From a virus (Duplodnaviria > Heunggongvirae > Uroviricota > Caudoviricetes): DNA of 64,000 bases. The position numbers and the translations under genes were made by a program. The notes beneath the pieces are model-generated. The model was given only the letters and a program-made list of their open reading frames with translations, had not been told where the DNA came from and did no database searches. Location of the stretch: positions 119,874 to 183,873 of the IMG/VR virus record IMGVR_UViG_3300029615_000411; one strand, given 5' to 3'. This document shows, in pieces, positions 17,005 through 35,913 of this stretch (positions within the stretch are counted from its first letter, which is position 1; each line of letters starts with the position of its first letter).

Positions 17005-17036
17005 TATATTATACCACATAAATATAATGTGGTCAA
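17005..17036 (-). promoter_or_regulatory. class II promoter P1 (TTGACC-17-TGgTATAATATA) for the secY-sortase operon
   Basis: Reverse complement TTGACCacattatatttatgtggTATAATata; spacer palindrome ACCACATaaatataaATGTGGT. Confidence 0.5.
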
Positions 17037-17048
17037 TACAAATTGCGA

Positions 17049-17080
17049 ATAAAAAAATGCCCCGCCGAAGCAGGGCATGT
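17049..17080 (-). terminator. intrinsic terminator after gene 17098..17751 (ATGCCC...GGGCAT TTTTTTT)
   Basis: aaaaaaatgccccgccgaagcagggcat read on minus strand. Confidence 0.55.
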
Positions 17081-17097
17081 GAAATATCAGAAGTGCC

Positions 17098-17751
17098 TTA
17101 TCGAATACCGTATCCCATATCTTGTCGCACGAGTTTTATTTCTGAAGTGTTTTTCAAACTATCGGGGAACATTTCTTTAGCGTAATCCTGATAGCGTTTC
17201 GTAACATACTTTACGCCGAGTTCTTCCGGTTTGATATCTGCTGCGGTTTTTCTGATACGTTGATTCGATGCGCGAGAAGAACATTTCTTGCATAAGCAAA
17301 GCGCGACATTAGAAATGCCTTCATTCCCGCAGACGGCGCATTTTGCATGCGTCTTATCTCTATCCCATTCCTTTATTTCTTTTCCGTTTTCCGGGTCTAT
17401 TACAAGGCGGTTGCGCTTACAGCGGCGCACATAGAACACGCTTTGGCAGCAGGCAACGCATAAGCCTAAATCTTTGCGGTAGTGAGAAGAGAGACCATCT
17501 GTGACTTCACCGCACAAAAGGCATTTATTTTGAGAAACAATATTCTTGTACTTATTAGCCTTGTTCTCTAATAGCTTTTTTATGATTTCACCGGTCTTAT
17601 CGGGTTCAGGAGGATACGCATCCCATCCGTTTACAGGAAAAAAGCTGGAAAAGTCGTTCCATTCATCATCAGAAAACGAACAGCCAACAGGTTTGAGTAT
17701 CTTAGGGAGTTTATTGGACCATACTTTTTCTGCATTAGACTTCTTCGGCAT
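17098..17751 (-). CDS. Cys-rich (multi CxxC) hypothetical protein
   Basis: AAGGAGGAG RBS before ATG 17751; CLLCGE, CVACC, CAVCGNEG, CLCKKC. Confidence 0.5.
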   Translation of the reverse strand: MPKKSNAEKVWSNKLPKILKPVGCSFSDDEWNDFSSFFPVNGWDAYPPEPDKTGEIIKKLLENKANKYKNIVSQNKCLLCGEVTDGLSSHYRKDLGLCVACCQSVFYVRRCKRNRLVIDPENGKEIKEWDRDKTHAKCAVCGNEGISNVALCLCKKCSSRASNQRIRKTAADIKPEELGVKYVTKRYQDYAKEMFPDSLKNTSEIKLVRQDMGYGIR

Positions 17752-17782
17752 ACAGGCTCCTCCTTTGGAAGGAGTGACAGAA

Positions 17783-19207
17783 TCAATATTCTGCCACGAT
17801 GTTATCATCGGGTTTCTTCTTTATCAAAGAGTCCCCAAATCGATTTACATGTTCTTTCGGCGGTTCAATGACCTCGATGTCGGTATCCTCCACTTTTTCG
17901 ATTTCGTCAGAGGAATCGTCGTCTTTTTCATTCTGAACCTTATCCGATGGATTGGTGATTTGTGCATCCTCTTTTGCAACATCTGAAAGCAAATCAAATG
18001 TCAACTGAGAATTTGAGGACGCTGGTTTCTTTTCTCTTTTCTTGGTTGTTTGGCGTTTTTTGGAAGTTCTTTTTGACTTTACAGGTTCATTGGAACCACC
18101 ATCGCTTGTTTTTGCACTTGCTGTGTTTGAATCAGCAACCGCATCCGCTGAAGCCTTATCCTTGTTTGTTTCTGTGACGGGTTCCTGAACCTTTTTGTTT
18201 TTTGATAAATCATCTTTGTCGGATTGTTTTGATTCCAAAGCAGAAGACTCTTGTGCGTTTGAACCTTGTTCTTCTTGCACAACAGATTCTTCCTTTACTG
18301 GAATCTTAGCAGTTCCCTTCTGCAAAAGACCGTCGATTGCTACAACGGCCTCAGACTTCTTTTCTTCGGACTCTGCCTTCTGTACTGCACGGCGAATCGC
18401 CTCGGTTTTTTCTTTCTTTTCTTTTTCTGCTGATGCGGTATTTTCGCTTTCCTTTATCTCAGCAGGCACATTCATGTCAGATTTCGAATTCCACCACTTC
18501 TCAATAGTAGTAATCGTTCTTTCTACTAATATTATACCACAAAATTTGTGGTTTGACAACTTACGGCTCGGCACAAAGCATACAATACCGCACAGAGAAA
18601 CAACCAGTAAAACAATAGCAAGTCCTGCATCAAAAATAAAACAGATAAACGACACCGGAATCAGCAGCTCGCAGATACCGCGCATGATAAATACTGTTTT
18701 ATCTCCTTGGTCTTTTCGGTTTTGCATAAAACTGTCTCTCCCCTTCTGCGGGTGATAAGACAAACCACTTGACAAGCCGTTTGTTGCCCAATCACAAGGT
18801 ATCTCGTAAGTCTTTTCTCCTAAGCTGTCTGTGTACTGAATTACAGCAATATCAAAATACTCACCATTCTTCTGTGATGCCAAGAATGCGCGTAAGAATT
18901 CATTTCCAACAGACCGCGCAGGAACAATAATCGTTTCGATGCCGTCAGAATCTTTTGCGGCAATATCTACTACATAGGTATCATCTTCACCGCGCCATAC
19001 GTTCTGCACAATACCGCGCACCAATATACCGCGCTTATGAACACGCCTTCCCATAAAAGTAAAGGAGTTTTCAGAATACCACGTGTTTACCATGCAATAC
19101 GCAGCAATAATAAGCAATGTAAGGTACTTAACATTTATGGAGATAATGCTTAAAGAAAAAATATACGGAACGAGCATCAGCAAGACGAATGATACAAAGC
19201 TATTCAC
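17783..19207 (-). CDS. membrane protein with long K/E/S-rich disordered C-terminal half; contains an internal consensus promoter
   Basis: GTG start overlapping upstream TGA; TM helices in N-terminal half; low-complexity acidic/lysine tail. Confidence 0.45.
18529..18560 (-). promoter_or_regulatory. class II promoter P2 inside the 474-aa ORF (TTGTCA-17-TATAAT, extended -10)
   Basis: Reverse complement TTGTCAaaccacaaattttgtggTATAATatt; perfect palindrome ACCACAAA/TTTGTGGT in spacer. Confidence 0.45.
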
Positions 19208-19878
19208 TTTGAATCACCGCCTTCGCCAAATCCGTCCAAAAAGACAAGATTTTCTTTTGTGTGTTTCTTTTTTTGTTCAATAACTTCTTTTTCAGCTTCT
19301 TGTTTGACTTTATCGTACGCTTCCAACGGGCTCATGGAAGGTACTGATTTCTGCGTATCAGCAGGGACAATAGTATCATCGTTTTTGACGGCTGTCGTTA
19401 CACGACTGCAGGTTACGAGATTTCTGTCATTAAACGCAGTTACGCCATCCTCATTTGATTTAAAAATAAAGTCATACATAGCACCAACGAAGAAAGAGTT
19501 TTTAACGTTTTTCTTTGATTCGTTGACGCTGAGGAAAAAATCGTATTTTCCGTTTTTGTCGATAAACTCTCCATCCTCATTGACAGGGATGATTCGATAG
19601 GTTGAAATCTGCTGGCGAATCATATTTTTGCTGGACTCATCGGATACAACAATTCCCTTAACAGTCTTATACCGTTCATTTTTTTCATCATTATGAATCT
19701 CATAAATTTGAAAAATAAAATAAGCGGCGCACATCAAGCCGATAAGAAGAATCTTCCACTCCTGCATTACAACAACACCGAAAATAGAAGCAATCAAGAA
19801 CAGAATAGCGATAAGCCCATTCTTCACATACATAGATGTGATAAGAGATTTGCAATCCGGATGATAAATCTTAGACAT
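19204..19878 (-). CDS. membrane protein (2 TM near N-terminus)
   Basis: ATG 19878 after AAGGCGGTG. Confidence 0.45.
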
Positions 19879-19879
19879 T

Positions 19880-20866
19880 TTATTCACCGCCTTCTACGTT
19901 AGAATCTTTATCTGCGCTGTTTGTCGTACTGGCAGACTGTAAAATGCTTGCACCCTGCTCATTCAGAACATCCTCGATTGTCTTGTCGCGTAGTTTAATG
20001 CTGGACAAGACGACATCGTAAGACTCCCCAGACGAAGTAGTTACCCGTGCGATATATTGAATGGTCGTATCCCCCGCAAGCAATGCGCCATCTATTGTTT
20101 GCTTCTGACGATTTCCGTCCTTATCTTCGGTCTCAACCACATACATATCCTGTGACGCTTTTTGTGCAGATACAGAAGACGTCATAACAATATCTCCGGC
20201 CTTCATATCAGAGGTCGCGAACTTGTTTACGATAGAACCTGTTCTATCCACAAAGAACACGGGAGTATCCTGCTGCATCTTCCCGTCGCCGTCTACGAAA
20301 TGCGAACCGCATAAGGATTCGTATTCGTTGACACTCAAAGTCTTATAGCTGAGTTCTGAATCCTCGATGGTATCCCCGGAAGGAATATCCACATTTACGA
20401 CAGCAACTTTATATTCTCCGGTAAGCTGTCCACTGATTTGGACCCAGTTTGTGTATACGAAGAAGCCAATAGCGATGGCGACAACGGCAACAATGAACAT
20501 TGCGATACCGATATTACGCTTGTTATTGTTTTTAATGATTTGTGCCTGTTCTAGGATTTCCTTACTGGCATGCTTAGTATCTTTAAGCGTCTGGTTTGCT
20601 TCATCCAGTGTATCGCTTGTCTTTGTAAGCACTTCGTAAGCTTTGGTCTCTCTATGGCCGACATTCACATTCAGCCCTTTTGCGCCATTGTTGTTGGCAG
20701 ACTTTGCGTTGTTGTATTCGGCGCGAAGCGTTTCCACAACGGAATCGTCAAGCGTCATCTGTTCCCCGTTAGGCAGAATTACCGTACCATCATCATAGAC
20801 ATCGAAAACACGTTCCTTGCCTTCATACATGGCGCGTACCTGACCGATAACATAATGTTCGTTCAT
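19880..20866 (-). CDS. bitopic membrane protein, possible SAF/CpaB-like extracytoplasmic domain
   Basis: AAGGGGTG RBS before ATG 20866; TM IGIAMFIVAVVAIAIGFFVY; VAVVNVDIPSGDTIEDSEL resembles SAF domain. Confidence 0.4.
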   Translation of the reverse strand: MNEHYVIGQVRAMYEGKERVFDVYDDGTVILPNGEQMTLDDSVVETLRAEYNNAKSANNNGAKGLNVNVGHRETKAYEVLTKTSDTLDEANQTLKDTKHASKEILEQAQIIKNNNKRNIGIAMFIVAVVAIAIGFFVYTNWVQISGQLTGEYKVAVVNVDIPSGDTIEDSELSYKTLSVNEYESLCGSHFVDGDGKMQQDTPVFFVDRTGSIVNKFATSDMKAGDIVMTSSVSAQKASQDMYVVETEDKDGNRQKQTIDGALLAGDTTIQYIARVTTSSGESYDVVLSSIKLRDKTIEDVLNEQGASILQSASTTNSADKDSNVEGGE

Positions 20867-20880
20867 GTTTATCACACCCC

Positions 20881-21375
20881 TTATCTCTTGTACTTTTCGA
20901 ACACCTTGCGCGAAGGAGCTCTCGGACCACACATTTTGCACTTTTTACTCTGCTCAACATAATCAATGAGCATCTGACGTTCCCATGCAAGGTATTCGTC
21001 CATATTTTTTTCTTTCCATGAATCGAATTTGCCGTATGAAACACCGAGATAACTGGCGAATATGCTGACAGCATTCAGCATATAATCATTCGGGATTACA
21101 ACCCTTTTCCCGTCCAGATTGTAAGCATGTCCCGTAGTGATTTTATTTCTTGTCTGTCCTATCTTCATTCGCCTCGTTTCTGTGTTCTTCTTTACCTGAG
21201 TTTCTCTTCTTAGGGTACTGCAGGACTTGCAATATTGAGTATTTTTGGCGGTAGAATAAAAAATCCTGCCGCATTCCTTGCATTTGCGTTCGTACGTTAT
21301 GGTTTTAGGAGTTGTACTTTGTTTTTGGGTTTCTGTATGGTTGCTGTTTTCAGAAGTACAATGATTCCGAGCCAT
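20881..21375 (-). CDS. zinc-finger (CxxC) hypothetical protein
   Basis: CKECGRIF...CKSC, CKMCGPR. Confidence 0.45.
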   Translation of the reverse strand: MARNHCTSENSNHTETQKQSTTPKTITYERKCKECGRIFYSTAKNTQYCKSCSTLRRETQVKKNTETRRMKIGQTRNKITTGHAYNLDGKRVVIPNDYMLNAVSIFASYLGVSYGKFDSWKEKNMDEYLAWERQMLIDYVEQSKKCKMCGPRAPSRKVFEKYKR

Positions 21376-21391
21376 AATCTGTACCTCTTAT

Positions 21392-22453
21392 TTAAACGCG
21401 AGCGTCAATCAGGCAATTCAGCAGCCCGTTCGCGTCACAGCCAAACAATAAGCATCCGAACACACCAATGGCATGTCCTTTTCTGGTAGAGAATGTTCCT
21501 GCCGTAACACCAAGATGCCCGGCAATCTGCTCATCTGTCCAGTTGTACTTTTTCCCCTCAATCATTGCAAGGATAACGTCATAATAACGTTGACCAAGCG
21601 GAAACTGTTTCATGATTTCGACAGCCCCTCGTATGAGTTTCACATACTCCACAATGAGATAGGCATCGCTTCTGTTTTTATCAGAAACTTTGATTTTACT
21701 CAAATCTTCGTACGAAGAAGACCCAAGCAGTTTCATGGCGGGGTCCTTTGACCGTGAGGCACGATACAGAATACGCGTGTATTCCGTAAGAAGCAGCGGA
21801 ACATTATGATAAAGGCTTGCTTCTTCTACCCCGTCCACATCACTGCTTGTCATCAGGATTTTATAATATTCCTTGATAACACTACCTGCTGTATTGTAAA
21901 CGGATTCAATGCACCGCTCGCAATACTTCATGATTTTGATGCGTCCATTCTTCGGAAGAACGGCGGGATTCAAAAAGCAATCAAACACCTCCCGCATGCT
22001 GGAACAATAATCGACTTCGTACAAGAGTTCTAACCGCGACTCCTCAATGGCGTCAAGAAGCATCTGACAACTTTCGAAGTATTCTTTGCGTTTCCTGAAA
22101 TGCAAAGACTCTTCCTCAATATTCGGAGCCAGCCAGCTCTGAATACGGCGCAGACGGGAAATGGCTTCGACATCGCACATCTCATCGTCGTGAACGTTTT
22201 CACAGTTCTGCATCATGACATCAAGGTCTTGTGCCTGCATCATCCATTTGAGTGCCGGATACAATATCATCAGAACAGCCGCTTCTTTCAGTTCCGGCCG
22301 CTCTTCCACAACACGGTTTACGCACTTTGTCAGCACATAAGAATTGGGGATGTCTCCGCCAAAACTTCTACGCAGAACAATGTTGTCCTGCATAATAGCA
22401 TCGAGCAATGCGTAAAGCTGCTGTTCTTGGGCTTTATTCAATGCTTCGGACAA
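21392..22453 (-). CDS. hypothetical regulator with sigma-70 region-4-like C-terminal HTH; TTG start
   Basis: WTDEQIAGHLGVTAGTFSTRKGHAI resembles sigma region 4.2; AAAGGAGGGAAGG RBS before TTG. Confidence 0.35.
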   Translation of the reverse strand: MSEALNKAQEQQLYALLDAIMQDNIVLRRSFGGDIPNSYVLTKCVNRVVEERPELKEAAVLMILYPALKWMMQAQDLDVMMQNCENVHDDEMCDVEAISRLRRIQSWLAPNIEEESLHFRKRKEYFESCQMLLDAIEESRLELLYEVDYCSSMREVFDCFLNPAVLPKNGRIKIMKYCERCIESVYNTAGSVIKEYYKILMTSSDVDGVEEASLYHNVPLLLTEYTRILYRASRSKDPAMKLLGSSSYEDLSKIKVSDKNRSDAYLIVEYVKLIRGAVEIMKQFPLGQRYYDVILAMIEGKKYNWTDEQIAGHLGVTAGTFSTRKGHAIGVFGCLLFGCDANGLLNCLIDARV

Positions 22454-22893
22454 TTTGCCTTCCCTCCTTTCGCAAGATTCGTTTCAATATGAATATGCGT
22501 GTTATCATGTACGGTTTCGGACAAAAGGCCACTATAATGGAACATGACCTTGTACTTCTTTGCGCTACAGGCATATTTGAGTCGCGCCCAAAGGTCTTTG
22601 TTATGACTGGGCTCAGTATCGCTGTCCTCTACGCCAAAAGAAGCACCAGTACGCGCAATCGCATTATCGCTGCTGAATACGACAATCTGAGACCCTGTTG
22701 GCAAACCGATGTTCTCGATAATGCGGCAGAGCTCTGCCAATTTCAGCCTTGTATAACCAATTGGAGTAGCCATAAAATAAGTATCCTTCTGTCTATCCGA
22801 CTTGGCGGAAGGATTTACGACAAAACTGTGAACGCACACCTCCCCATTCAGTTCCGGCGTTTTGACGATATCAAGATAAATAATAGCGGCCAT
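22438..22893 (-). CDS. hypothetical protein (151 aa)
   Basis: GGGGGAG RBS before ATG 22893. Confidence 0.45.
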   Translation of the reverse strand: MAAIIYLDIVKTPELNGEVCVHSFVVNPSAKSDRQKDTYFMATPIGYTRLKLAELCRIIENIGLPTGSQIVVFSSDNAIARTGASFGVEDSDTEPSHNKDLWARLKYACSAKKYKVMFHYSGLLSETVHDNTHIHIETNLAKGGKANCPKH

Positions 22894-22919
22894 AAATCGC
22901 TCCCCCTAATGTACAGTAA

Positions 22920-22950
22920 TTGACTTTTTCGCGTTTTTGTGGTATTATAT
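22920..22950 (+). promoter_or_regulatory. plus-strand class II-type promoter (TTGACT-17-TGgTATTATATA) for the 23048 regulator; divergent region with an 11-bp inverted repeat at about 22966-23012
   Basis: ttgactttttcgcgtttttgtggtattatata; TTATATTACCG...CGGTAATTATATA. Confidence 0.45.
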
Positions 22951-23047
22951 AAGTGCAGTAAAGGTATAATTTATATTACCGGTTACAAAAATTGTTGTTT
23001 TCGGTAATTATATAAACTTGTCTGTTAAACCAAGCAGGAGGGAAATT

Positions 23048-23710
23048 ATGAGTAACAATATCAACAACAACCACGAATCGGTAGAGAATATCTTCAATGC
23101 TTTCTTGATGGGAGGCAAAATGAACACTGCTTCCAAGCAAGAACGAGCAAAAATTGTAGATACCTTTATGGAACAGGCAAAATCTTGCTTTGTTGACACG
23201 GAGAATACCGTGAAATATCTAAATGTTCTGATGGAACGGACGAGACTCCGTTATGGGTTTACCGCTGATGAATTTGCAGCAATGTTGGGATACAGCAGCA
23301 CTGCCGCTTACAACAAGACATTCATGCAACCAAATGCAAATTTTGGAACTGTAGTATTTCCTTATGTGGTTCAGTTTTGCTATCTGTTTGGCTATAATTT
23401 GTCAATTCCTGATTCCGTGTCTGCTCCGCAAACAGTGGCAGACCTATACTCTTTGGAACTGGCTTCTTTTCTGATTTCTCTTGGCCCCGATGCAATGGAT
23501 GATATTTCAAGAACATTGGTCGGTGCCGAATACCTTGACCCGAATTTAAGAAAAACAAGTTCTCAAATACTTTCAAAGGCAAAGAAATACTTCTATGGTA
23601 ATGATGGTGAAGCGTTACCCAATGAAGTTCAGTACCGCAACAGATTAGATAACGCTGAGAATAAGATTAAGCGTCTCGATAAAATAGAGAAAGCCAATCA
23701 CGACAAATGA
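23048..23710 (+). CDS. HTH-containing putative transcriptional regulator (plus strand)
   Basis: AGGAGGG RBS 6 nt before ATG 23048; GFTADEFAAMLGYSSTAAYNKT helix-turn-helix-like; own TTGACT-17-TATTAT promoter. Confidence 0.55.
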   Translation: MSNNINNNHESVENIFNAFLMGGKMNTASKQERAKIVDTFMEQAKSCFVDTENTVKYLNVLMERTRLRYGFTADEFAAMLGYSSTAAYNKTFMQPNANFGTVVFPYVVQFCYLFGYNLSIPDSVSAPQTVADLYSLELASFLISLGPDAMDDISRTLVGAEYLDPNLRKTSSQILSKAKKYFYGNDGEALPNEVQYRNRLDNAENKIKRLDKIEKANHDK

Positions 23711-24175
23711 TTAGCCGCCAAACATATCGGCTAACTGTAATGCAAGCATCGCTTCTTCTGAAATAGGAGGCGGTGCTTCTTCTGTTTTTGGAGTTGTGTT
23801 GATGGTTTGTGTGTCTGTAATGTTTTGGGGGGAGTAATTTGAAGCTGGCGCAGCTACCGCAATCCCGTTTTTCTGAATGCTGCTTGTCACTGCATCTACA
23901 ATCTGAGGGATACAGCTTCTGATTTCTTCTGCTATTGTGTTTTGCAGTTCCTCTTTTAAGATGGACTGCGCTTCTTGCATCTCATGTTGTTTTGTAGCCT
24001 TGTCGATTATAGCATTTACAACCGCATCGGTTTTTCCGCCGCGTTGCAAACTGTTCAGATAATCATATACAAGTACATGATTGTCTTTGCTTAAATCAAA
24101 AACAAGTGTGGTTCGTACCGTCGTGCCAACGGTCTCTTTTTCTGTTTCATTCTTTTTGGGACGTCCACGCGGCAT
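23711..24175 (-). CDS. parR: ParR-like small DNA-binding partition adaptor (ribbon-helix-helix-like N-terminus)
   Basis: MPRGRPKK basic N-terminus then beta-alpha-alpha pattern; immediately downstream of the ParM-like gene. Confidence 0.4.
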   Translation of the reverse strand: MPRGRPKKNETEKETVGTTVRTTLVFDLSKDNHVLVYDYLNSLQRGGKTDAVVNAIIDKATKQHEMQEAQSILKEELQNTIAEEIRSCIPQIVDAVTSSIQKNGIAVAAPASNYSPQNITDTQTINTTPKTEEAPPPISEEAMLALQLADMFGG

Positions 24176-24208
24176 TCAGTGCTCACCACGCTTTCGAAAA
24201 CGGTGCTC

Positions 24209-25168
24209 TTAAATTTCACCGCTCATGGTCAGCTTTGCACGAGCCATGATTTCATATCCTTTTGCATTTGCGGTTACATCCGTCAAGAAGAAAAGGTTCT
24301 TGGTGTCAATGGCTCGCTCGATGCTTTCGCGCATCATAGCAGAACCACCGCCCATAAAGATGAAATAGGATGTTTTGAAATCGTCCTTGATTTTTTCGGA
24401 AATCGTACGAATCAATGCTGTTGCATAATTGTCTGCGGTTTCCTTGGCAATTTTCACGGCGTTTTCATCGACCAGCATGTTGTTGTTCCCTGCAAGGATT
24501 GCCTCAGCCATGTAGTCATCGACCGACAAGGAACAATGGACACGCAGCTCGCTCTCGACAGTGCTCAGGAGTTCAATGACTCCACGGTCATAGCTTTCGC
24601 AGAAAGAAAGGTCCGGAGCATAAGTGTTGCCACGACCAGAGAAACGAATCACATCCGTGGTATACCCGCCGATGTCTACGACATAAGAACGGGGATAGCG
24701 CTTGATTTCCTTCTGAATCTCGCTTGCTGCCGTAATAGAAAAGCCCTGAGGATAGACAAAGACATGCTTGACAGTAATCTCAAACGGGATATCTTTGTAC
24801 ATGAAATTGATGAGTTTCCCGCTTTTGCCGAAATACTCATCATACTTCGCTTTCAGGGACATATGCTGCGGGGGCAAGCCCATCGCGAGGCATACATCGT
24901 ATTTGTAGAATTTCTGATTGGGATACTTCTTTATAAGGTTCTTTGCTACGGCAATCAGCGTCAGCAAAAAGTAAGTGTCATCCTTCGTCTTATCCTGCTG
25001 ATAAGGCGTACGGCTGTCATTGAGGGAATAATACTTCCCCATGTAGCACATCGTCTCTCCCTTGATAGCCGGTTCAGTCGTACCATGACGAACAAGACCA
25101 GTGGGAAACGGCTCACAGCCAGGCGTCTTCATTGCCTTGTTTCCGGTATCTACTCCAATAATCTCCAT
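24209..25168 (-). CDS. parM: actin-like ATPase, ParM/StbA/Alp family plasmid segregation protein
   Basis: MEIIGVDTGNKAMK (phosphate-1), VVDIGGYTTDV (phosphate-2), IFMGGGSAMM (adenosine) motifs; GGAGGA RBS before ATG 25168. Confidence 0.65.
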   Translation of the reverse strand: MEIIGVDTGNKAMKTPGCEPFPTGLVRHGTTEPAIKGETMCYMGKYYSLNDSRTPYQQDKTKDDTYFLLTLIAVAKNLIKKYPNQKFYKYDVCLAMGLPPQHMSLKAKYDEYFGKSGKLINFMYKDIPFEITVKHVFVYPQGFSITAASEIQKEIKRYPRSYVVDIGGYTTDVIRFSGRGNTYAPDLSFCESYDRGVIELLSTVESELRVHCSLSVDDYMAEAILAGNNNMLVDENAVKIAKETADNYATALIRTISEKIKDDFKTSYFIFMGGGSAMMRESIERAIDTKNLFFLTDVTANAKGYEIMARAKLTMSGEI

Positions 25169-25264: not shown

Positions 25265-25395
25265 CTCACTGACTGATGCATAGCAGTTGTTAAAACGGAA
25301 AGAACAACTAATATACAACTACCTGTTGTTATCATGATACCACACATGCAGTTGTCCAGCAACGAACTTTTGTTCGCATAGACAACAAAAAAGAA
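25265..25395. promoter_or_regulatory. iteron cluster (at least 7 copies of CAGTTGT/ACAACTG-like 7-8-mers, both orientations) between the ParM-like gene and the XRE gene; candidate parC centromere or operator
   Basis: agCAGTTGTt, gAACAACTa, tACAACTAc, cTGTTGTTa, gCAGTTGTc, tTGTTCGc, GACAACAa within about 120 bp. Confidence 0.4.
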
Positions 25396-25406: not shown

Positions 25407-25637
25407 ATGCCATCCACCTTTGATACCATGGTAGGAAAGCGAATCAAAAAGCAACGAATGGAAATCAATTACAGCCAAGAACAGTTGGCGGCAAGCACGA
25501 ATTGTTCCTATCGCTGCATCCAAAAATGGGAGTCAGGAAAGACGATGCCGCGAGCACAAATGCTATGCAATTTAGCAAAAGCCTTACATGTTTCGTCTGA
25601 CTGGCTGCTTGGTATTTCCAATGACAGGAACGGTTAA
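25407..25637 (+). CDS. XRE-family HTH transcriptional regulator (Cro/CI-like)
   Basis: GKRIKKQRMEINYSQEQLAASTNCSYRCIQKWESGKTMPRAQMLCNLAKALHVSSDWLLG; AAAGGAG RBS. Confidence 0.7.
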   Translation: MPSTFDTMVGKRIKKQRMEINYSQEQLAASTNCSYRCIQKWESGKTMPRAQMLCNLAKALHVSSDWLLGISNDRNG

Positions 25638-28952: not shown

Positions 28953-28989
28953 GATTTAACCCTCACTCTAAATACGGCAAAAAGGCCAT

Positions 28990-29032: not shown

Positions 29033-29036
29033 TCGC

Positions 29037-29555
29037 TTAAATAATCGAGAACTTACGCTTTTTGTTTGTGAACTCAACAATCATAGAAGGACGACGACTG
29101 CCGATAGTCTCTTTCCGATTCTCAGAGTCAATGAACAGATAAGGGTTCGTCATCTTGATTCTGGCAGGCAGAAACTTTACCCTTACTCCCTGCTGTCCAT
29201 AAATGTATCTCTGGAACCAGTCAGAGTCCGTAGAAACGGGTAAAAGCATGACGACCGTGGTATTCTTTTTCCTTGACTCCTCGTACGCCTTGCGCACCCA
29301 CAACTTAAAGGACTTATGCCCTGTCGGGGGATTGCAAAATACTGTTTCACCTTTCCAGTCCTGCAAGAGACCATCGACACGCTCCGTGTAATATTTCTTG
29401 CATTTATGATTTTTGTCCGATGCAGCCGCATCCAGAGTGAAACCGTATTCCTTGTTCAGGTCATCGAAAAGCCCCTGAGGCGTCTCCCATTCCTGTTTGT
29501 GAGTATTCTTGACTGCATAAGTCTTATCCGTTGTTTTCGTTTCTACGCTGTTCAT
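29037..29555 (-). CDS. phage-type DNA N6-adenine methyltransferase (Dam family), orphan
   Basis: WETPQGLFDDLNKEYGFTLDAAAS...YYTERVDGLLQDWKGETVFCNPPTG matches phage Dam signature; motif IV is NPPT rather than NPPY/DPPY. Confidence 0.7.
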   Translation of the reverse strand: MNSVETKTTDKTYAVKNTHKQEWETPQGLFDDLNKEYGFTLDAAASDKNHKCKKYYTERVDGLLQDWKGETVFCNPPTGHKSFKLWVRKAYEESRKKNTTVVMLLPVSTDSDWFQRYIYGQQGVRVKFLPARIKMTNPYLFIDSENRKETIGSRRPSMIVEFTNKKRKFSII

Positions 29556-29584
29556 GGCAATCTTCCCCTTACGATTGATGATGT

Positions 29585-30223
29585 TTATTTCGTGGTTTTT
29601 GGGCCTTTTAAAAGCCCCTTGGTTCTGAGAATGTTCCGCACATATGCAAGGCGTCTTCTGCCAAAGCCATGTGCATTCTGCTTACTTTTGTTTTCGGCAT
29701 AAGCCATATCAGAATACTTGATGCCGTCTTTGTAATGCTTCAAGAGATAATCTGTAACAGTCGTATCTCTGATTGCAAGAATAGCATCGACAATTCTCGC
29801 TTCTTCTTTTTTCGAATAAGGATAATCGTCGATGTTATACCTGACCCCGTCCAGCCCGCAAATGATATTCACGGGCCAACCCTTGCGGAAGGCAATGTTT
29901 GCTTCGCGGATATTCCGTTCTGTCATGACATCACCGGTCTTATCTCTTCTGTGCCTGTACAATGTTCGCTGCGCACAGGCTTTGCATACACCCCGCGCAT
30001 ATATGATAGAAAGCCTATTACAAATAGGGCATTCTTCGATTCGGACATGTTTTCCGGACTTAACGGTTTGATAATCCAATCCGTTGATGTAAGTCTTGTT
30101 GTTAAAGGTGATTGTTTCTGCACCCTTATATTCAGGGAACTCATCTCCTGTATAAATTCCCTTCATCTCTGCGGGGAGAGTATCTGCGTCGCTTTGAAGT
30201 ACGTAGAATTTCTTTTTGCTCAT
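29585..30223 (-). CDS. hypothetical protein with CxxC zinc ribbon (212 aa)
   Basis: CPICNRL...CKAC. Confidence 0.45.
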   Translation of the reverse strand: MSKKKFYVLQSDADTLPAEMKGIYTGDEFPEYKGAETITFNNKTYINGLDYQTVKSGKHVRIEECPICNRLSIIYARGVCKACAQRTLYRHRRDKTGDVMTERNIREANIAFRKGWPVNIICGLDGVRYNIDDYPYSKKEEARIVDAILAIRDTTVTDYLLKHYKDGIKYSDMAYAENKSKQNAHGFGRRRLAYVRNILRTKGLLKGPKTTK

Positions 30224-30242
30224 GGTCTACCACCGTTTCTGT

Positions 30243-30962
30243 TTATCCTGCGATGCTGCTTTTAGCAACCTCGAATGGCTTTACATCAACAAGCCTTACA
30301 GAAACAATGGTAGCAAGCAGGTCTTTGGTGCTATTGAAGATGATGTTCTTCTTCTCGCCAAAGGTATCATAGAACTGAGCAGAGCAGCGATTCGGATTGT
30401 CATCGGTATCCAGCATTTTGAATCCGCTCTCTCCTCTGCACAGCATCGTGGTAATATAACTACCCATGTTGCAGAAGAAATCGGTTGTAGTGAACCGGAA
30501 TACCGGAGGCGTTTTCTTACGGATGGTGATGTACCGCTCGTAAAGCTCTCCGTTGATTTCCGTAACCATCAGAAGTTCAAAGGTACAGATGAACTGCCCT
30601 GCTGTCGGTGACGGAATTCCGTGCGTAGGAGTTCCCTTGTGCTGCGCCGCACTCTCCGCCTCGTACATGATTCCGTACTGTGTAACGTTGACGGTGCCGA
30701 GATTGTCAATCTTCTTGACAGTCTGATGTTTGACGAGATAGCCGTCGTACATAAGACGGTCAATAATTCTCTCGCCCTTGGCTTTCAGATTGTCGCCCTC
30801 AATCGTTGAAACGACTTCGTCAGAACCCTCGTACTGATAGCCAACGACACGACCAAAACATGCAGGCGCATCGTTTTCACTTTCTACTTTCAGGGACATA
30901 ACTGACCCGAAAGGGCAATACTCCGGAATTCTTTTCTTTGCTACATAACGTTTTTCTACCAT
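30243..30962 (-). CDS. hypothetical protein (239 aa)
   Basis: Class II promoter P3 upstream. Confidence 0.45.
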   Translation of the reverse strand: MVEKRYVAKKRIPEYCPFGSVMSLKVESENDAPACFGRVVGYQYEGSDEVVSTIEGDNLKAKGERIIDRLMYDGYLVKHQTVKKIDNLGTVNVTQYGIMYEAESAAQHKGTPTHGIPSPTAGQFICTFELLMVTEINGELYERYITIRKKTPPVFRFTTTDFFCNMGSYITTMLCRGESGFKMLDTDDNPNRCSAQFYDTFGEKKNIIFNSTKDLLATIVSVRLVDVKPFEVAKSSIAG

Positions 30963-31124
30963 TGAATCTGTCCCCCGTATTTGCTTGTTAATTCGTATGA
31001 TATTGCCTATTTATTCTAATATAGTCAACATCAAAAAACTGCGTAAAAAATCGCACAGATGTTCTTCTGCGCTGTTCCACCATAGAAATATCACCGATAT
31101 TCCCTGTTCATCTTGAACATATCT

Positions 31125-31158
31125 ATATTATACCACATTAAAACAAGGTAGTCAACGA
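31125..31158 (-). promoter_or_regulatory. class II promoter P3 (TTGACT-17-TGgTATAATATA)
   Basis: Reverse complement TTGACTaccttgttttaatgtggTATAATata. Confidence 0.5.
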
Positions 31159-31199
31159 CAAAAACCGTCGCAAATGTTAGTTTTCGCATTTACGACGGC
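31158..31199 (-). terminator. terminator after flotillin gene (CCGTCGtAAATG...CATTTgCGACGG TTTTTG)
   Basis: Extended interrupted stem plus T-run. Confidence 0.5.
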
Positions 31200-31223
31200 T
31201 GAAGTTATATTTTTTTGAGCAAA

Positions 31224-32759
31224 TTATTTTATATCGCTTGCGTTTTCGTCAGGTTCGATGTGCGCATTGTCATCAGCCTTCTCGATTGCAGGCAAACCGT
31301 GAATGTTGATATTGCGGTCGGTCTTAGCATTGATACTGTTCGCACGAACGATATCGGCCATATCAATACCGGTAGCTTCCTTGACGGTCTGCATGGTCTG
31401 TGCCATCAGCACGGGAACATTCCCAGACACGCCGGAAACGCCAGATGCATCGCCGCCGATAATAGATACCTTATCGATTGCGGACAAGGGCTGAGCCACA
31501 TTCTTAGCAATATCAGGCAGGACCTTGATAAGCATTTCAGCGACAGCGGCATCGTTGTACTGCTTGTAAGCCTCCGCTTTTTGCTTCATAGCTTCGGCTT
31601 CAGCAATACCCTTCTGACGGATAGCCTCAGCTTCTGCCTTACCTACAAGGGCAATACCTTCGGCTTCCTGTTGCTTTGCAAATTTCTGAGCCTCAGCAGC
31701 GCGTTCGGCTTCGTATTTTTTTGCTTCTGCTTCTTTTTGGCGTTTATACAATTCGGCATCCGCAGCTTTGCGAACCTCTGCATCCAGTTTTCTCTGCTGA
31801 ACCTCGGCTTCCTGTGCAGCAAGGTCGACCATCTTCTTCTGCTTTGCAATTTCCGCATCAGCTTCGGCTTCTTTGATTTCCTTGGCGCGAAGATTTGTCT
31901 GAATCTGTCCTGCAGCGTTGGCATCGGCAGCAGCCTTGTCAGCCTCGGCCTTCAATTTGGCCTTTGCCAGCTGCAATTCATTGTTGCGCTGTGCAATAGC
32001 AGTCTGGGCTTCAACTTCCTTTTCATTGGCTGCCATTTCAGCGTCAGCCTTTGCGCGAGCAATATCACGAGCGGCTTCGGCGCGAGCAATCTCTGCGCGT
32101 TTCTTGACGGCTTCTTCCTGCTCAATACCAATAGCCTCAATGACGCCGTGATTGTGACCCTGCGCATCGACGGCGTCTTTTACATCCTGCACATTGAAGG
32201 TCACAACTTCAAGACCCATTTTTGCAAGGTCAGGACGGGCATTTTCGATTACTGACAGCGCCATTTGTTTACGATTTGTGAGAATCTGGTCAACCGTCAT
32301 ATCCGAAACGATTTCGCGCAGGTTGCCTTGCAAGACATCATTTACTTTGTCATTGATGCCTTTTTCGTCCATGCCAAGGAAGTTCGAAATAGCCGACTGC
32401 TGACGACCCGTAATATATTCCTTGACATCCTTTGCACCAGATGCCTGAACCTCAGAGTCGAGAACAGTAGAATTATCGCTGTATACCTGAATCGTTACAA
32501 CAGAATCAATCCAGAGCGATACGCCTTCTTTTGTCTTGACACCTGTCTCAGGGGTTTTGACATCAATTTTCAGAAGACGCATATTCAGCTTATCTGCACG
32601 CTGCAGCACAGGGATGACGAATGTACCCTTTCCGCAAACGACTTTTGGCTTTTTCAAGCCAAATCCAGTCACAACGATGGCTGCTGTGGGAGGCGCTTTT
32701 TTGTAGCATGTGAATGCGAACAAAACAAACAATACGACAATGATGATTCCTAAAAACAT
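31224..32759 (-). CDS. flotillin-like SPFH/band-7 protein (FloT-like) with Ala/Glu-rich coiled-coil repeats
   Basis: N-terminal TM, SPFH domain, then long AEAxxKxxAEA flotillin-type repeats; terminator follows. Confidence 0.75.
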   Translation of the reverse strand: MFLGIIIVVLFVLFAFTCYKKAPPTAAIVVTGFGLKKPKVVCGKGTFVIPVLQRADKLNMRLLKIDVKTPETGVKTKEGVSLWIDSVVTIQVYSDNSTVLDSEVQASGAKDVKEYITGRQQSAISNFLGMDEKGINDKVNDVLQGNLREIVSDMTVDQILTNRKQMALSVIENARPDLAKMGLEVVTFNVQDVKDAVDAQGHNHGVIEAIGIEQEEAVKKRAEIARAEAARDIARAKADAEMAANEKEVEAQTAIAQRNNELQLAKAKLKAEADKAAADANAAGQIQTNLRAKEIKEAEADAEIAKQKKMVDLAAQEAEVQQRKLDAEVRKAADAELYKRQKEAEAKKYEAERAAEAQKFAKQQEAEGIALVGKAEAEAIRQKGIAEAEAMKQKAEAYKQYNDAAVAEMLIKVLPDIAKNVAQPLSAIDKVSIIGGDASGVSGVSGNVPVLMAQTMQTVKEATGIDMADIVRANSINAKTDRNINIHGLPAIEKADDNAHIEPDENASDIK

Positions 32760-32774
32760 GGTATACTCCTTTTC

Positions 32775-33005
32775 TTATCTGCAATGGGATTTGCAATACT
32801 TTGACACTTTGCTGGCGACCTCTTTCTTGAATGCATATTCATCACATTGTGCCAAACGCATTTTATATATCTCCTGTTGTTTGGCAACACGAGCCGAATA
32901 GCCTTCGCATACGGAATGACATCCAGCTTTGCGATGTGGGCATTGATAACAGGTTCTAAAAATGTCGTGTTCGCTCGCACTTCCAGTATTGCTGTTCGAT
33001 GTCAT
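32775..33005 (-). CDS. small Cys/His-rich protein (76 aa), co-transcribed upstream of flotillin
   Basis: CYQCPHRKAGCHSVC...CKSHC. Confidence 0.4.
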   Translation of the reverse strand: MTSNSNTGSASEHDIFRTCYQCPHRKAGCHSVCEGYSARVAKQQEIYKMRLAQCDEYAFKKEVASKVSKYCKSHCR

Positions 33006-33042
33006 AAATGGAATTCCCCCTGTCTTTCCAATTGATATATTA

Positions 33043-33076
33043 TATTATACCACAAATAAGCAAAAGAATCAATTAA
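33043..33076 (-). promoter_or_regulatory. class II promoter P4 (TTGATT-17-TGgTATAATATA) for the small Cys protein and flotillin
   Basis: Reverse complement TTGATTcttttgcttatttgtggTATAATata. Confidence 0.45.
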
Positions 33077-33105
33077 AAAGACGAGCAAGATACTTCTCGC
33101 TCGCC
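33075..33105 (-). terminator. terminator after secreted protein gene 33124..34212 (CGAGC...GCTCG TCTTTTT)
   Basis: Short stem plus T-run abutting P4 -35. Confidence 0.35.
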
Positions 33106-33123
33106 TTCTGCTTTTCTGTGTTG

Positions 33124-34212
33124 TTAGGTTTCTTCGCTGTCTTCGCTATCTTCTTCTTTGCGGCTATCCTTAGAGAACCCGACAAAACCGCATGCGCCTG
33201 CGGAAATTCCGAAGATTACTGCCATGATGGGCATGATGAGTCTGTTTCGATATACAGCGCCTACAATGAAATTGGCGTTAGCTACCTGCTCCAATACATA
33301 GTGCGCAATCGCGCAAATCGTAAGTTCAGAAGCGTTACCGAACGATTCATCAAGACCGATGCTGAGCAACGACATGGAATAGGTTGCGCTGGCTACATAC
33401 TTAATTTCGATAGGTGCAGCGGTTTCATATACAGCTACATAACTCTTGCCGGTATTCTTTTGACCGTAGATAGACAGTGTGCGGTAGAATCCGCCTTCTG
33501 CCCTTGCTACTGGGTCGCTTGTCCACTTACCGCCTGTGATTTTATAGGAATCACTGTTCAGACCGATGGCAGACATCAAATCGCTCTTATAACCATCCCA
33601 AAGCGGTGTGGCGGGATTGTATGTGTGGACTTTTCCGAGATAGACATATGCGGTGGCACCTTCCGGAATTACGACTTGTCCATCAATCGTGAAATCGACC
33701 CATGTATCGGTGTCCTCGACTTCATTGACCTCTTTCAGAACGCCTTCAACTTCCGTACCATCATCAAGAGTGAAGGTCTTGTTTTGCGGGGCGTTCGGTT
33801 TCTTGTCTTCGCCCTTGTACTCTACTGTCATTTCTGTGGGAATATCGGCTTGCTCTTCCGTGTACTGAACATCTTCGAGCGGCAATTCATACTGTTCTCC
33901 GCCCAGCGTTACAGTATAGGTCTGAGGAACTTCTTTTACAGTCAAATCCGTATATTCTACGGTTTCTTGATACTTGGTATTGAGTTCCCTTTGCTGATAA
34001 TCTACGCTGTCTTCGTCGAGGACATAGGTATTACCGTTCTCCTCAATTTCCTTCGGAAGAGGATTGGCATCGGCTTCTTCTTGGTCCTTGTAATTGAACT
34101 CACGAGTGATATCAATATCAATATCACCAAGAGAAGTCAACGCTTGTGTAGAAATACATCCTACACAAAGCAGCGCACTTACAAAAGCAAGCACTCTCAT
34201 TACATTTTTCAT
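33124..34212 (-). CDS. secreted acidic protein with C-terminal hydrophobic anchor and charged tail (no xKTG motif)
   Basis: MKNVMRVLAFVSALLCVGC signal peptide; C-terminus IMAVIFGISAGACGFVGFSKDSRKEED. Confidence 0.5.
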   Translation of the reverse strand: MKNVMRVLAFVSALLCVGCISTQALTSLGDIDIDITREFNYKDQEEADANPLPKEIEENGNTYVLDEDSVDYQQRELNTKYQETVEYTDLTVKEVPQTYTVTLGGEQYELPLEDVQYTEEQADIPTEMTVEYKGEDKKPNAPQNKTFTLDDGTEVEGVLKEVNEVEDTDTWVDFTIDGQVVIPEGATAYVYLGKVHTYNPATPLWDGYKSDLMSAIGLNSDSYKITGGKWTSDPVARAEGGFYRTLSIYGQKNTGKSYVAVYETAAPIEIKYVASATYSMSLLSIGLDESFGNASELTICAIAHYVLEQVANANFIVGAVYRNRLIMPIMAVIFGISAGACGFVGFSKDSRKEEDSEDSEET

Positions 34213-34274
34213 AGCTTTTTTGGGCGTCTTAGCAGCTTGTCTGCCTGTACGCCGCCTCCTTTCGAATTCTCCTT

Positions 34275-34307
34275 TTATTGTATCTACTTTGCAGCAAATA
34301 GCAAAGA
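34275..34307 (-). promoter_or_regulatory. class I promoter F (TTTGCT-ATTTGCTGCAAAGTAGA-TACAAT)
   Basis: Upstream of the 33124..34212 secreted protein gene. Confidence 0.4.
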
Positions 34308-34351
34308 AAAAAGCCGAGCGGCTTATCACCGCTCGGCATCCCCATCACATA

Positions 34352-34906
34352 TCAATCTTCATCGACGTCTTCGTTGACAGTCGTGTTTACTCGTTCCTCT
34401 TTCGGAATGTACTTAGGTGTGGGCTCACAACGACATTTGAGTACATATTCACTATCGCCAAACGCAAGTTCCTTTAATGCTAACGGATAGGCAAAAAACA
34501 GCTTCTTGGCAAATGCTTCATCCTTATCAAACGCTTTTGCCAGTTTCTTGTAGAAGAACCAGCAATAAGCAGACAATGCAAGAGTGTAAGCAATAGAATC
34601 AAACTGAAACATCGTGAATCCAGTTCCCAACTCAACATGGTTCATAAAATACCATACCCAAAGCCAAGACGGAACACACTGAATGATAGAGCCTACACCG
34701 TATACCAGTGGATACACGCCATAGGTACCATAGGCGAAAATGAGCGGAGAAGCTCCCTTCTTATATGCCTTATAGGACATTTTCATAACACAAACAAAAA
34801 TAAAAAGAAGTGTTACGGTAGTCAGCAGATTAGCAATGAAGTGTAAGAAGCCAAGCCCCTTCGTACAAAGATGTAAGGTCAATCCTAAATAAAGAATAAT
34901 CGGCAT
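34352..34906 (-). CDS. polytopic membrane protein (about 184 aa)
   Basis: GAGGAGG RBS; ATG 34906 gives 7 nt spacing. Confidence 0.45.
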   Translation of the reverse strand: MPIILYLGLTLHLCTKGLGFLHFIANLLTTVTLLFIFVCVMKMSYKAYKKGASPLIFAYGTYGVYPLVYGVGSIIQCVPSWLWVWYFMNHVELGTGFTMFQFDSIAYTLALSAYCWFFYKKLAKAFDKDEAFAKKLFFAYPLALKELAFGDSEYVLKCRCEPTPKYIPKEERVNTTVNEDVDED

Positions 34907-34926
34907 TTTCATTCCTCCTCTTTTCT

Positions 34927-34958
34927 ATATTATACCACATTTTGCCTTAATGGTCAAC
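34927..34958 (-). promoter_or_regulatory. class II promoter P5 (TTGACC-17-TGgTATAATATA)
   Basis: Reverse complement TTGACCattaaggcaaaatgtggTATAATata. Confidence 0.5.
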
Positions 34959-34967
34959 TTGTATAAT

Positions 34968-35009
34968 ACAAAAAAAGATAGCCACCCATTTCTGAGCGGC
35001 TATCTGAAG
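34968..35009 (-). terminator. terminator after lipoprotein gene (AGATAGCC...GGCTATCT TTTTTTTG)
   Basis: 8-bp stem plus T7. Confidence 0.55.
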
Positions 35010-35155
35010 ATTTGAGGTCCGCATTCAGTGCCTAAACACTGTTTTGCTTCCCTGATGACTGGTTTTATCGTTGCTCGCCAACCGCAGGTCTATACATCCT
35101 GCATCACACTTTGAGAAAATAATCGAGTTTATGTGCCAGCCTCACAAGGCGTCTT

Positions 35156-35815
35156 TTAGCCTACTGCGGTTTCGTCAGCAGGGGCCTCGGACTCAGCAGC
35201 AGAATCAGCCTCGGCAGTATCCTCAGAGGAAGCCTCCTCAGTGGATTCGGCGGCATCGCCATCAGTCTCGGTGCTTTCAGCCTCGCTGTCAGAAGCCTCA
35301 CTGTCAGCAGCTTCAGATTCAGCAGTGCTCTCAGCCTCGGATGCGGCCGCTTCCTCAGCAGGCACGGAGGTAGCCACCAGCAGATTGCCCTCGGCATCAG
35401 CCTGACCACAGTTGTACAGATATGCGAACGCGGCGCTCAGATTGTCGAACTTGGACAGGTCAGGAACCTCAACAGTAGAACCGTCATCAGCGGTCTTGGT
35501 ACCGTCGAAATGAACGCTGCCGTCCTCGTCATAGCGAACGGTGACGGTATAGCCATCGCTTGCCAGAGCCTCGGTCATATAAGCGGCATAAGCGTTCATG
35601 GTGGTCTTCATCTGGTCCTCACTCAGAGAAACACCATCGGGCATCTCAGTCAGCTTGCTGTTATCCAGAACCTCAACTGCGGACTCACTGGTCGCGCCGC
35701 TTGCACTGGCAGCATCATCCTTCTTGCCACAACCAACAAATGCAGTGCAGGCCATTGCCATAGCAAGACACAGCGCAGCACCCTTCTTTACAGAACTCTT
35801 GTTAACCTTCTGCAT
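35156..35815 (-). CDS. lipoprotein with highly acidic A/E/S-rich C-terminal tail
   Basis: AAGGAG RBS before ATG 35815; LAMAMACTAFVGC lipobox-like signal. Confidence 0.5.
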   Translation of the reverse strand: MQKVNKSSVKKGAALCLAMAMACTAFVGCGKKDDAASASGATSESAVEVLDNSKLTEMPDGVSLSEDQMKTTMNAYAAYMTEALASDGYTVTVRYDEDGSVHFDGTKTADDGSTVEVPDLSKFDNLSAAFAYLYNCGQADAEGNLLVATSVPAEEAAASEAESTAESEAADSEASDSEAESTETDGDAAESTEEASSEDTAEADSAAESEAPADETAVG

Positions 35816-35880
35816 GAGTAACTTCTCCTTTTTCATGTGTGTTTGTTTGATGTGCATAAACAAGCTTCATGCACTATGCT

Positions 35881-35913
35881 TATATTATACCACCAAAAAC
35901 ATAAATAGTCAAC
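35881..35913 (-). promoter_or_regulatory. class II promoter P6 (TTGACT-17-TGgTATAATATA) for the acidic lipoprotein
   Basis: Reverse complement TTGACTatttatgtttttggtggTATAATata. Confidence 0.5.

Follow-up and report, generated by a model that had tools for sequence, protein, structure and literature searches.

Seven short sequences within 19 kb of an apparently viral DNA record resemble one another so closely as to raise the question of whether they form a private regulatory code of the element that carries them. The stretch analysed here (the window) comprises 64,000 nucleotides of IMG/VR record IMGVR_UViG_3300029615_000411 (positions 119,874 to 183,873), which is classified under the tailed phages (Caudoviricetes) but, as set out below, matches the description of a conjugative megaplasmid of the Hodor type. 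An earlier, sequence-only reading of the window had recognised two promoter families: class I, said to serve the left arm, and class II, to which the seven sequences belong. It proposed that the two are partitioned in time or by regulation. Our analysis points to a more familiar answer, to which we assign a probability of roughly 0.8: class II sequences are near-full-consensus promoters for the host housekeeping sigma factor (sigma-A/sigma-70 type).

Class II copies were sought with the 14-mer TGTGGTATAATATA, allowing up to two mismatches, with 100 dinucleotide-preserving shuffles serving as the null. All seven sites previously reported, six on the minus strand and one on the plus strand, were recovered (17005-, 18528-, 22938+, 31124-, 33041-, 34926- and 35881-), against a mean of 0.25 and a maximum of 2 in the shuffled sequences. 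The 14-mer was exact at four of these and differed by a single base at three (...ATATT at 18528, TATTAT at 22938 and GGTGG at 35881). The extended -10 motif is thus real, although its description as invariant was overstated. The full composite consists of a TTGAC-like -35 box, 17 bp, (T/G)GTGG, TATAAT or TATTAT, and ATA or ATT. As first described, the spacer is exactly 17 nt long and ends in GTGG at every site. TGG precedes the -10 hexamer at all seven sites and TRTG at six (GGTGG being found at 35.9 kb), while the hexamer itself is TATAAT at six sites and TATTAT at one. The -35 boxes are TTGACC (two sites), TTGACT (three), TTGATT (33.0 kb) and TTGTCA (18.5 kb); the proposed TTGAC(C/T) consensus therefore holds at five sites and fails at the last two. 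Compared with TTGACA, TTGATT matches at 4/6 positions and the boxes of the other six sites at 5/6.

In a scan of the whole window for TTGACA-N16-18-TATAAT, the seven class II sites ranked top. A generic sigma-70 scan of the interval from 16.4 to 36.1 kb returned 34 matches where 32.3 were expected, which is the chance level overall; within it, only the class II seven joined at least 10 of 12 hexamer matches to a TG before the -10 box. A purine occupies the predicted +1 position, 7 nt past the -10 box, in six of the seven. Two weaker class II-like sites, upstream of the ParM gene and of a 2671-aa gene, had been overlooked by the sequence-only reading (Table 1).

The surroundings of these sites are those of promoters, as had been supposed. 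An intrinsic terminator (a strong hairpin followed by a T-tract) lies 5-20 nt upstream of five of the seven, those lacking one being the divergent plus-strand copy and an intragenic copy at 18.5 kb. With the exception of this same intragenic copy, each site is followed at 16-164 nt by a Shine-Dalgarno (SD) sequence and start codon in the right orientation. The genes downstream agree with the earlier assignment of class II to secretion, flotillin and lipoprotein functions, to which Dam/DUF2325 genes upstream of ParM can be added.

Searches with the ParM-like protein of the window returned a graded series of homologues, and the contigs encoding them proved syntenic with the window. We compared the window with those designated L003, L004, L008/L294, L296, L297 and L298, the protein identity of which ranges from 79% down to approximately 52% (judged on three proteins: ParM, a 353-aa protein and the sortase). 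All of these lineages have promoters of this type at orthologous sites, namely behind the MBG giant gene, ahead of a 239/250-aa gene, at the divergent gene, within a 474-585-aa open reading frame (ORF) and ahead of the zinc-finger/SecY operon. The promoter at 35.9 kb has counterparts in L004 and L008, likewise behind the MBG giant gene; that at 22.9 kb keeps its divergent placement in L003, L004, L008, L294 and L296; and orthologues of the 17.0-kb promoter occur in L003 (12476), L294 (16665), L296 (16286), L297 (6144) and L298 (5941). When the orthologous regions were aligned, only TTGAC and (T)GTGGTATAAT(A) were conserved, the spacers, flanks and leaders being essentially unalignable. A matrix built from 24 hand-picked sites in the window and its relatives gave the same picture: information content was close to 2 bits at TTGA, at GG and over most of TATAAT, fell to 1.1-1.8 bits at the flanking positions of the boxes, and was mostly below 0.7 bits (at most about 1.1) in the spacer.

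The intragenic copy is instructive in this respect. It lies between the membrane domain and the low-complexity tail of a 474-aa ORF, and is retained within the orthologous ORF in L004, L294, L296 and L297 (in L003 it is intergenic). The residues encoded by the boxes (KL..N...CGII) are kept and those encoded by the spacer vary between lineages; the constraint therefore acts on the DNA signal.

High identity over 14 nt at seven sites, in a region that carries a ParM-type segregation gene, is also what might be seen if class II were a dispersed repeat, be it a duplicated promoter cassette, the remnant of a mobile element or a binding repeat of the partition-centromere type. However, the likeness ends at the promoter boxes, with nothing shared among spacers and flanks; the copies are scattered across 19 kb at the starts of genes and share the orientation of those genes; and diverged lineages keep the boxes alone at orthologous positions. 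We give this explanation almost no weight, and its first form, the duplicated cassette, was rejected on the lack of flanking homology between copies.

What the sequences show directly is the motif with its spacing, the excess of copies over chance, their arrangement around terminators, SD sequences and ORFs, and their conservation at orthologous sites; recognition by the host housekeeping sigma factor is deduced from these. TTGACA, TATAAT and a preferred spacer of 17 bp are the standard elements of housekeeping sigma promoters. In Firmicutes, TRTG, which in class II occupies -17 to -14, is a common form of the extended -10 element, 17 bp is the preferred spacer and transcription starts about 7 bp after the -10 box (PMC12641261; PMC6570832), the '-16 region' TRTGn being credited by both sources to Voskuil and Chambliss. 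A '-15 element' of sigma-70 promoters, credited in PMC3526299 to Djordjevic, has the consensus TGGT (-15 to -12), whose conserved G at -13 has been the subject of mutagenesis experiments (PMC3526299). The class II sequence TGTGG-TATAAT is TRTG, TGGT and the -10 hexamer combined, each at consensus. Every conserved class II position corresponds to a described consensus position of sigma-A/sigma-70 extended -10 promoters, from which the family shows no structural difference.

We propose that the -35 sequence TTGAC(T/C) would be read by sigma region 4, the '-16' TRTG motif by region 3 and TATAAT by region 2, across a spacer of optimal length, with the TGGT of the '-15 element', including its G at -13, forming part of the recognition. 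An A/T-rich discriminator would follow, and transcription would start at the purine approximately 7 nt downstream. Each class II promoter would open a separate transcription unit, in most cases directly behind the terminator that ends the one before it. So defined, the units would comprise small lipoprotein/membrane genes, the flotillin gene, the Dam/DUF2325 genes upstream of ParM, and a lipoprotein-SecY/G/E-trigger factor-sortase export module. Because all of the recognition elements are near-optimal, strong firing without an activator would be expected in any Bacillota host; we infer that class II promoters are both strong and constitutively active. Their mutual similarity would then reflect convergence on, and upkeep of, a single optimum rather than a private regulatory code or recent duplication.

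The family does differ from typical promoters of this kind in its uniformity. Among 23 exact TTGAC...TATAAT sites in the element family, both the 17-bp spacer and the G at -13 are present in 23/23. We compared these with 58 exact TTGAC-N16-18-TATAAT sites found in other Clostridia loci totalling 1.23 Mb, where the density of strong TTGAC/TATAAT promoters (9.9 per 100 kb) is about that of the window (10.9 per 100 kb). At the sixth position of the -35 box the element family prefers T or C to A, and T is also the commonest base at this position in the other Clostridia loci.

Several points weigh against recognition by the host factor. The other Clostridia loci show no base preference at -13 (G in 16/58), and the difference from the family is pronounced (Fisher p = 4e-10). 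The triplet that follows the -10 box is lineage-specific: the window has ATA, as L003 mostly does, whereas AAC, AGC or AAT is found elsewhere, and only the first A of the triplet is general across lineages. Together, the lineage-specific triplets and the fixed G could reflect a plasmid-specific factor. The 18.5-kb copy is intragenic and has no SD sequence or start codon nearby. Finally, the preprint describing the Hodor megaplasmids used metatranscriptome coverage to infer a single operon made up of the giant gene and its three neighbours (PMC12934698), a point to which we return.

The plasmid-specific factor might be a plasmid-encoded member of the sigma-70 family that reads class II and renders transcription independent of the host, the fixed G at -13 and the discriminators having co-evolved with it. 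Two proteins bear on this possibility. On L299, a 345-kb contig with a 51%-identical sortase, a divergent RpoD/SigA-like sigma factor is encoded directly after the sortase. This gene (L299:10840-11892; ENA contig NODE_16_length_345480) has genes for DNA polymerase III alpha and a topoisomerase nearby. In the window, the 353-aa protein encoded at 21392-22453, which the sequence-only reading had called sigma-like, is confined to the element family (five homologues) and has a C-terminus that by eye resembles a region-4-like helix-turn-helix (HTH). Nevertheless, neither sequence nor fold searches bore this out. Seven family members returned no sigma match in Pfam, NCBIfam or PHROG even at E <= 10, and phmmer and profile searches against the PDB likewise returned none; hhalign gave a probability of 0.8% for its alignment with the L299 sigma factor; and its AlphaFold model is of low confidence (pLDDT, the predicted local distance difference test, 56), with a best sigma match in Foldseek at E of about 3 and nothing significant. 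No sigma domain was detected in any tested window protein, and no relative of the L299 sigma factor was found in viral contigs. Moreover, unrelated viral contigs use the identical motif including the G at -13, which lies within the published sigma-70 consensus (PMC3526299). A dedicated plasmid sigma factor is, on this balance, improbable. The family is unusually uniform and complete, yet along known axes, and its simplest reading is as maximal-strength, activator-independent host promoters.

The sequence-only reading had also noted palindromes in several spacers. These are real at two sites, ACCACAT-N7-ATGTGGT at 17.0 kb and ACCACAAA-T-TTTGTGGT at 18.5 kb, and are lacking at the other five. 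Were an HTH-repressor dimer to bind such palindromes, formed together with the GTGGT of the extended -10 element, class II would be a co-regulated regulon. The occurrence of ACCAC at two of seven sites has a probability of about 0.0025 under the spacer composition, and the two palindromic promoters head adjacent units. Set against this, the left arms consist partly of -35 sequence (the ACC of TTGACC and the final A of TTGTCA), the right arms derive from the TGG-T of the '-15 element', and no palindrome occurs in any of the orthologous promoters of L003, L004, L294, L296, L297 and L298. Two palindromes among about 30 family sites is, moreover, near expectation. An operator role of the palindromes thus seems unlikely, and we consider a class II regulon built on them to be highly improbable.

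That class II represents a generic optimal promoter is further suggested by its occurrence elsewhere. The exact pattern TTGAC-N13-TGTGGTATAATATA, which specifies 19 bases, was found in at least 120 stretches of IMG/VR contigs, with a GC content of 24-54% among the matches listed. Unrelated IMG/VR contigs (L124, L126/L173, L217 and L270) contain arrays of 7-17 promoters per 7.6-14.5-kb locus with the composite TTGACA-N12-T(G/A)TGG-TATAAT-ATA..., often beside hairpins; because the same composite recurs in dense arrays on unrelated viral contigs, the class II motif is best understood as a generic optimum. The array contigs have no tblastx similarity to the window, and L124 and L126 gave no match to cultured phages. 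On L126, many array promoters sit in a short hairpin that straddles the -35 box.

Phages such as SPO1 and T5 possess clusters of early promoters that are near-consensus for the host polymerase. Like the arrays of L124, L126, L217 and L270, the window carries many copies of one composite motif on a single element. In contrast to class II, with seven copies in 19 kb, the arrays are far denser, use TTGACA and lie on contigs called viral by IMG/VR, whereas the class II sites head ordinary-sized operons on what is evidently a conjugative plasmid. Because of these differences in density, element and operon size, a temporal meaning as 'early' promoters does not transfer to class II. The temporal partitioning first proposed presumes a phage, and we reject both phage identity and an early/late programme: PHROG searches turned up neither structural nor lytic functions, and the window fits what has been described for a conjugative megaplasmid.

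Hodors, of which 38 genomes have been curated, are conjugative megaplasmids of gut Bacillota, 211-389 kb in length with a GC content of 44.6-47.1% (Yuan et al., bioRxiv 2026, PMC12934698), that are routinely called viral by virus-detection tools. They carry a module of hyp-SecY-SecG-SecE-trigger factor-class B sortase, and a giant protein of more than 7300 aa followed by an MBG/S-layer protein of about 2642 aa (PMC12934698). Further traits are ParM/StbA, a Rep_3 initiator, ParA/ParB, a type IV secretion system (T4SS; VirB4, VirB6 and VirD4) and a MOBH-like relaxase (PMC12934698). In gene content, as compared with this published description, the window corresponds to the surface-module region of a Hodor-type element of the human gut. 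The likeness extends to the export module, the giant ORF beside an MBG protein of about 2650 aa, ParM, GC content, a relative of about 346 kb and the misclassification as viral. Domain searches identified SecY (14084-15424; 1e-86), FKBP/Trigger_C (12346-13698) and the zf_Tbcl 'hyp' protein (15724-16401). Two small ORFs lie between the SecY and FKBP genes, where SecE is annotated in L294, L296, L297 and L298; a sortase domain is present in homologues of the protein encoded at 11363-12334. The giant ORF (44372-63937, minus strand) encodes at least 6542 aa and is open to the end of the window (64000); the 21 codons preceding the listed ATG contain no stop. Its antisense strand also has very long frames without stops (3981 aa), a by-product of the repetitive, biased composition of the ORF. 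The neighbouring 2650/2671-aa protein contains seven MBG_2 repeats.

The ParM gene, of the actin-like protein (ALP) type (24209-25168), is 98-99% identical on IMG/VR contigs of 88.9 kb and 346 kb (345,980 bp, 98%), and its product has distant relatives in genomes of Oscillospiraceae, Lachnospiraceae and other Clostridia. GC content is about 47% overall and 40-52% by 2-kb window; Inocle, a giant element of the oral cavity, was rejected as a candidate on this basis (GC 24-32% versus about 45% in the window). No Rep_3, ParA/ParB, T4SS or MOBH-like relaxase was detected among the window ORFs scanned, and the replication and transfer genes presumably lie outside the 64 kb. The interval from 16 to 36 kb had no megablast match in PLSDB plasmids or INPHARED phages, and the window as a whole contained no Rfam family at threshold.

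Coordinates of the promoters and terminators are collected in Table 1.

Table 1. Promoters and terminators mapped in the window, in order of position.
Feature	Position	Strand	Sequence or structure	Predicted target or context
Class II promoter	17005..17036	-	TTGACC-N12-TGTGG-TATAAT-ATA	Heads 171-aa lipoprotein/membrane gene and export-gene run
Intrinsic terminator	17057..17078	-	Hairpin scan and fold	Upstream of promoter 17005
Class II promoter	18528..18559	-	TTGTCA-N12-TGTGG-TATAAT-ATT	In frame within 474-aa ORF 17783-19207
Class II promoter	22920..22951	+	TTGACT-N12-TGTGG-TATTAT-ATA	Sole plus-strand copy; drives 220-aa gene 23048-23710
Weak class II-like promoter	25334..25362	-	TTGCTG-17-TGTGG-TATCAT	Upstream of ParM/ALP gene
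Class II promoter	31124..31155	-	TTGACT-N12-TGTGG-TATAAT-ATA	Downstream: 239-aa, 212-aa, Dam, 93-aa, DUF2325 and 449-aa genes
Terminator-like hairpin and T-tract	31163..31200	-	-19.2 kcal/mol, then TTTTTG	Upstream of promoter 31124
Class II promoter	33041..33072	-	TTGATT-N12-TGTGG-TATAAT-ATA	Drives 76-aa ORF, then flotillin/SPFH gene
Terminator-like hairpin and T-tract	33076..33109	-	-21.2 kcal/mol, then CTTTTT	Upstream of promoter 33041
Class II promoter	34926..34957	-	TTGACC-N12-TGTGG-TATAAT-ATA	Drives 184/186-aa membrane protein
Intrinsic terminator	34976..35005	-	Hairpin scan and fold	Upstream of promoter 34926
Class II promoter	35881..35912	-	TTGACT-N12-GGTGG-TATAAT-ATA	Drives 219-aa putative lipoprotein, start 35815
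Intrinsic terminator	35919..35952	-	15-bp stem, 8 GC pairs, -27.9 kcal/mol	Terminator of 2671-aa gene; 6 nt upstream of -35 box of promoter 35881
Degenerate class II-like promoter	44089..44118	-	TTGACT-18-TGTGG-CATATT	Upstream of 2671-aa MBG gene; downstream of class I promoter ~44263-44290
Class I promoter copies	1109, 5324, 7502, 9787, 11346, 34296, 44282	-	TGCTGCAAA	Promoter span ~+8 to -19 around each

Around the giant gene, a terminator followed by a promoter is found at each of the junctions near 44.3, 35.9 and 35.0 kb, which divide the giant gene, the 2671-aa gene and the small genes. The terminators separating these genes lie at 44329-44358, 35919-35952, 34976-35005 and 34313-34337 (all minus strand). 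This arrangement predicts that the giant gene and its neighbours would be separate transcription units, unlike the single operon of the preprint. Translation signals follow two of the class II promoters here, with the SD sequence AAAGGAG and an ATG 68 nt past the -10 box of promoter 35881, and GAGGAGG and an ATG 16-22 nt past that of promoter 34926. The flotillin/SPFH gene (31224-32759), downstream of promoter 33041, was identified by matches to the Flot and Band_7 domains.

Promoter 31124 is followed by a 164-nt leader that holds a hairpin and U-tract (31053-31072, minus strand) before the first gene. A leader hairpin and T-tract of different sequence occupies the same place in L004 (after 4865), L008/L294 (after 4910/2304) and L296. 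The hairpin may act as a conserved attenuator of the Dam/DUF2325 genes that precede ParM. The weak promoter of the ParM gene itself is abutted at its -35 box by the palindrome CGAACAAAAGTTCG (25363-25376, minus strand). A GAACAA(A/T)AGTTC palindrome with the T/C-(G/A)-TGG context of the -10 box occupies the corresponding site in L003 and L008; close variants of CGAACAAAAGTTCG occur in L003, L008 and L294, and a degenerate one in L296. Adjoining CGAACAAAAGTTCG is a divergent ORF of 76 aa (25407-25637, plus strand) encoding an HTH protein of the XRE/RstR type, and the palindrome is likely to be the operator of an autoregulated partition operon.

At the divergent promoter, the interval 22894-23047 yielded no recognisable promoter for the minus-strand operon beginning at 22893 (encoding the 151-aa and 353-aa proteins and others). 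A bidirectional terminator at 23692-23778 should stop read-through into this operon from upstream. For the intragenic promoter 18528, the candidate targets are the next gene (17098-17808) and a C-terminal isoform of the 474-aa protein. Promoter 17005 precedes a run of genes on the same strand that encodes the 171-aa lipoprotein/membrane protein, the zinc-finger 'hyp' protein, SecY, ORFs of SecG/SecE size, an FKBP/trigger-factor-like protein and a sortase B-like protein. No terminator was detected within this run, which presumably forms one operon.

Class I is distinct from class II, as originally described. Copies of both classes have sigma-70-like -35 and -10 boxes, share a strand and head operons. 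Class I, however, combines a TTGCAA-like -35 box with 16-bp spacing and a near-invariant spacer, TGCTGCAAAGT, and has neither TG nor TGG before the -10 box. No sigma contact explains the conservation of this spacer. Six of the seven class I copies have a conserved 5' GATAAAT box near the transcript start, and six of seven a strong terminator hairpin and U-tract 60-150 nt downstream, before the ribosome-binding site. These leader hairpins could be attenuators or members of a small-RNA family. The confinement of class I to the left arm did not hold: the copy at 34296 lies between two class II units, and that at 44282 is upstream of the 2671-aa gene and is followed by the degenerate class II site, such that the two classes interleave. 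A regulatory difference between them is plausible, though its basis would be the operator-like spacer and leader terminators of class I and not any property of class II.

Class I cassettes are also found on other IMG/VR contigs that carry class II promoters. The cassette at 5227-5333 is 80-86% identical to L092:4226-4332 and L161:3131-3238, with no similarity in the flanks. The terminator stems of these cassettes show compensatory changes (CCGCTATCTC/GAGGTGGCGG versus CCGCCATCTC/GAGGTGACGG), which suggests that the class I cassette may be a constrained or mobile RNA module.

Class II sites are real, conserved and functional-looking; they add new members to a type of signal that is thoroughly known, on an element whose description is recent. 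Taken alone, the finding changes little, these being textbook strong promoters. It does provide the first map of promoters and terminators for part of the conserved surface/secretion region of Hodors, the main text of the preprint containing neither 'promoter' nor 'sigma' nor any word beginning 'regulat' (PMC12934698). The predicted separate units stand in contrast to the single operon proposed there, and paired metatranscriptomes exist for some Hodors (PRJNA492158, PRJNA354235 and PRJNA818303, cited for curated G2 Hodors; PMC12934698). The map also reveals an intragenic promoter maintained in frame across lineages. With regard to regulation, class I rather than class II is worth pursuing, its cassette of promoter, leader and terminator being the more unusual.

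Near-consensus, activator-independent promoters would suit a plasmid for which movement among distant Bacillota has been proposed. We tentatively raise the possibility, itself rather doubtful, that Hodor transcription has two tiers: class II, readable by any Bacillota housekeeping polymerase, and class I, gated by a plasmid-encoded factor. If so, class I, with its conserved spacer element, conserved leader of about 100 nt and terminator, would be gated by a repressor, an antiterminator or a small-RNA system. In a stronger variant, the invariant G at -13 and the discriminators particular to each lineage would mark recognition by a plasmid-encoded sigma factor. Were the two tiers to exist, class II would give plug-and-play expression of surface-export, flotillin and maintenance genes straight after conjugation, and hence a broad host range.

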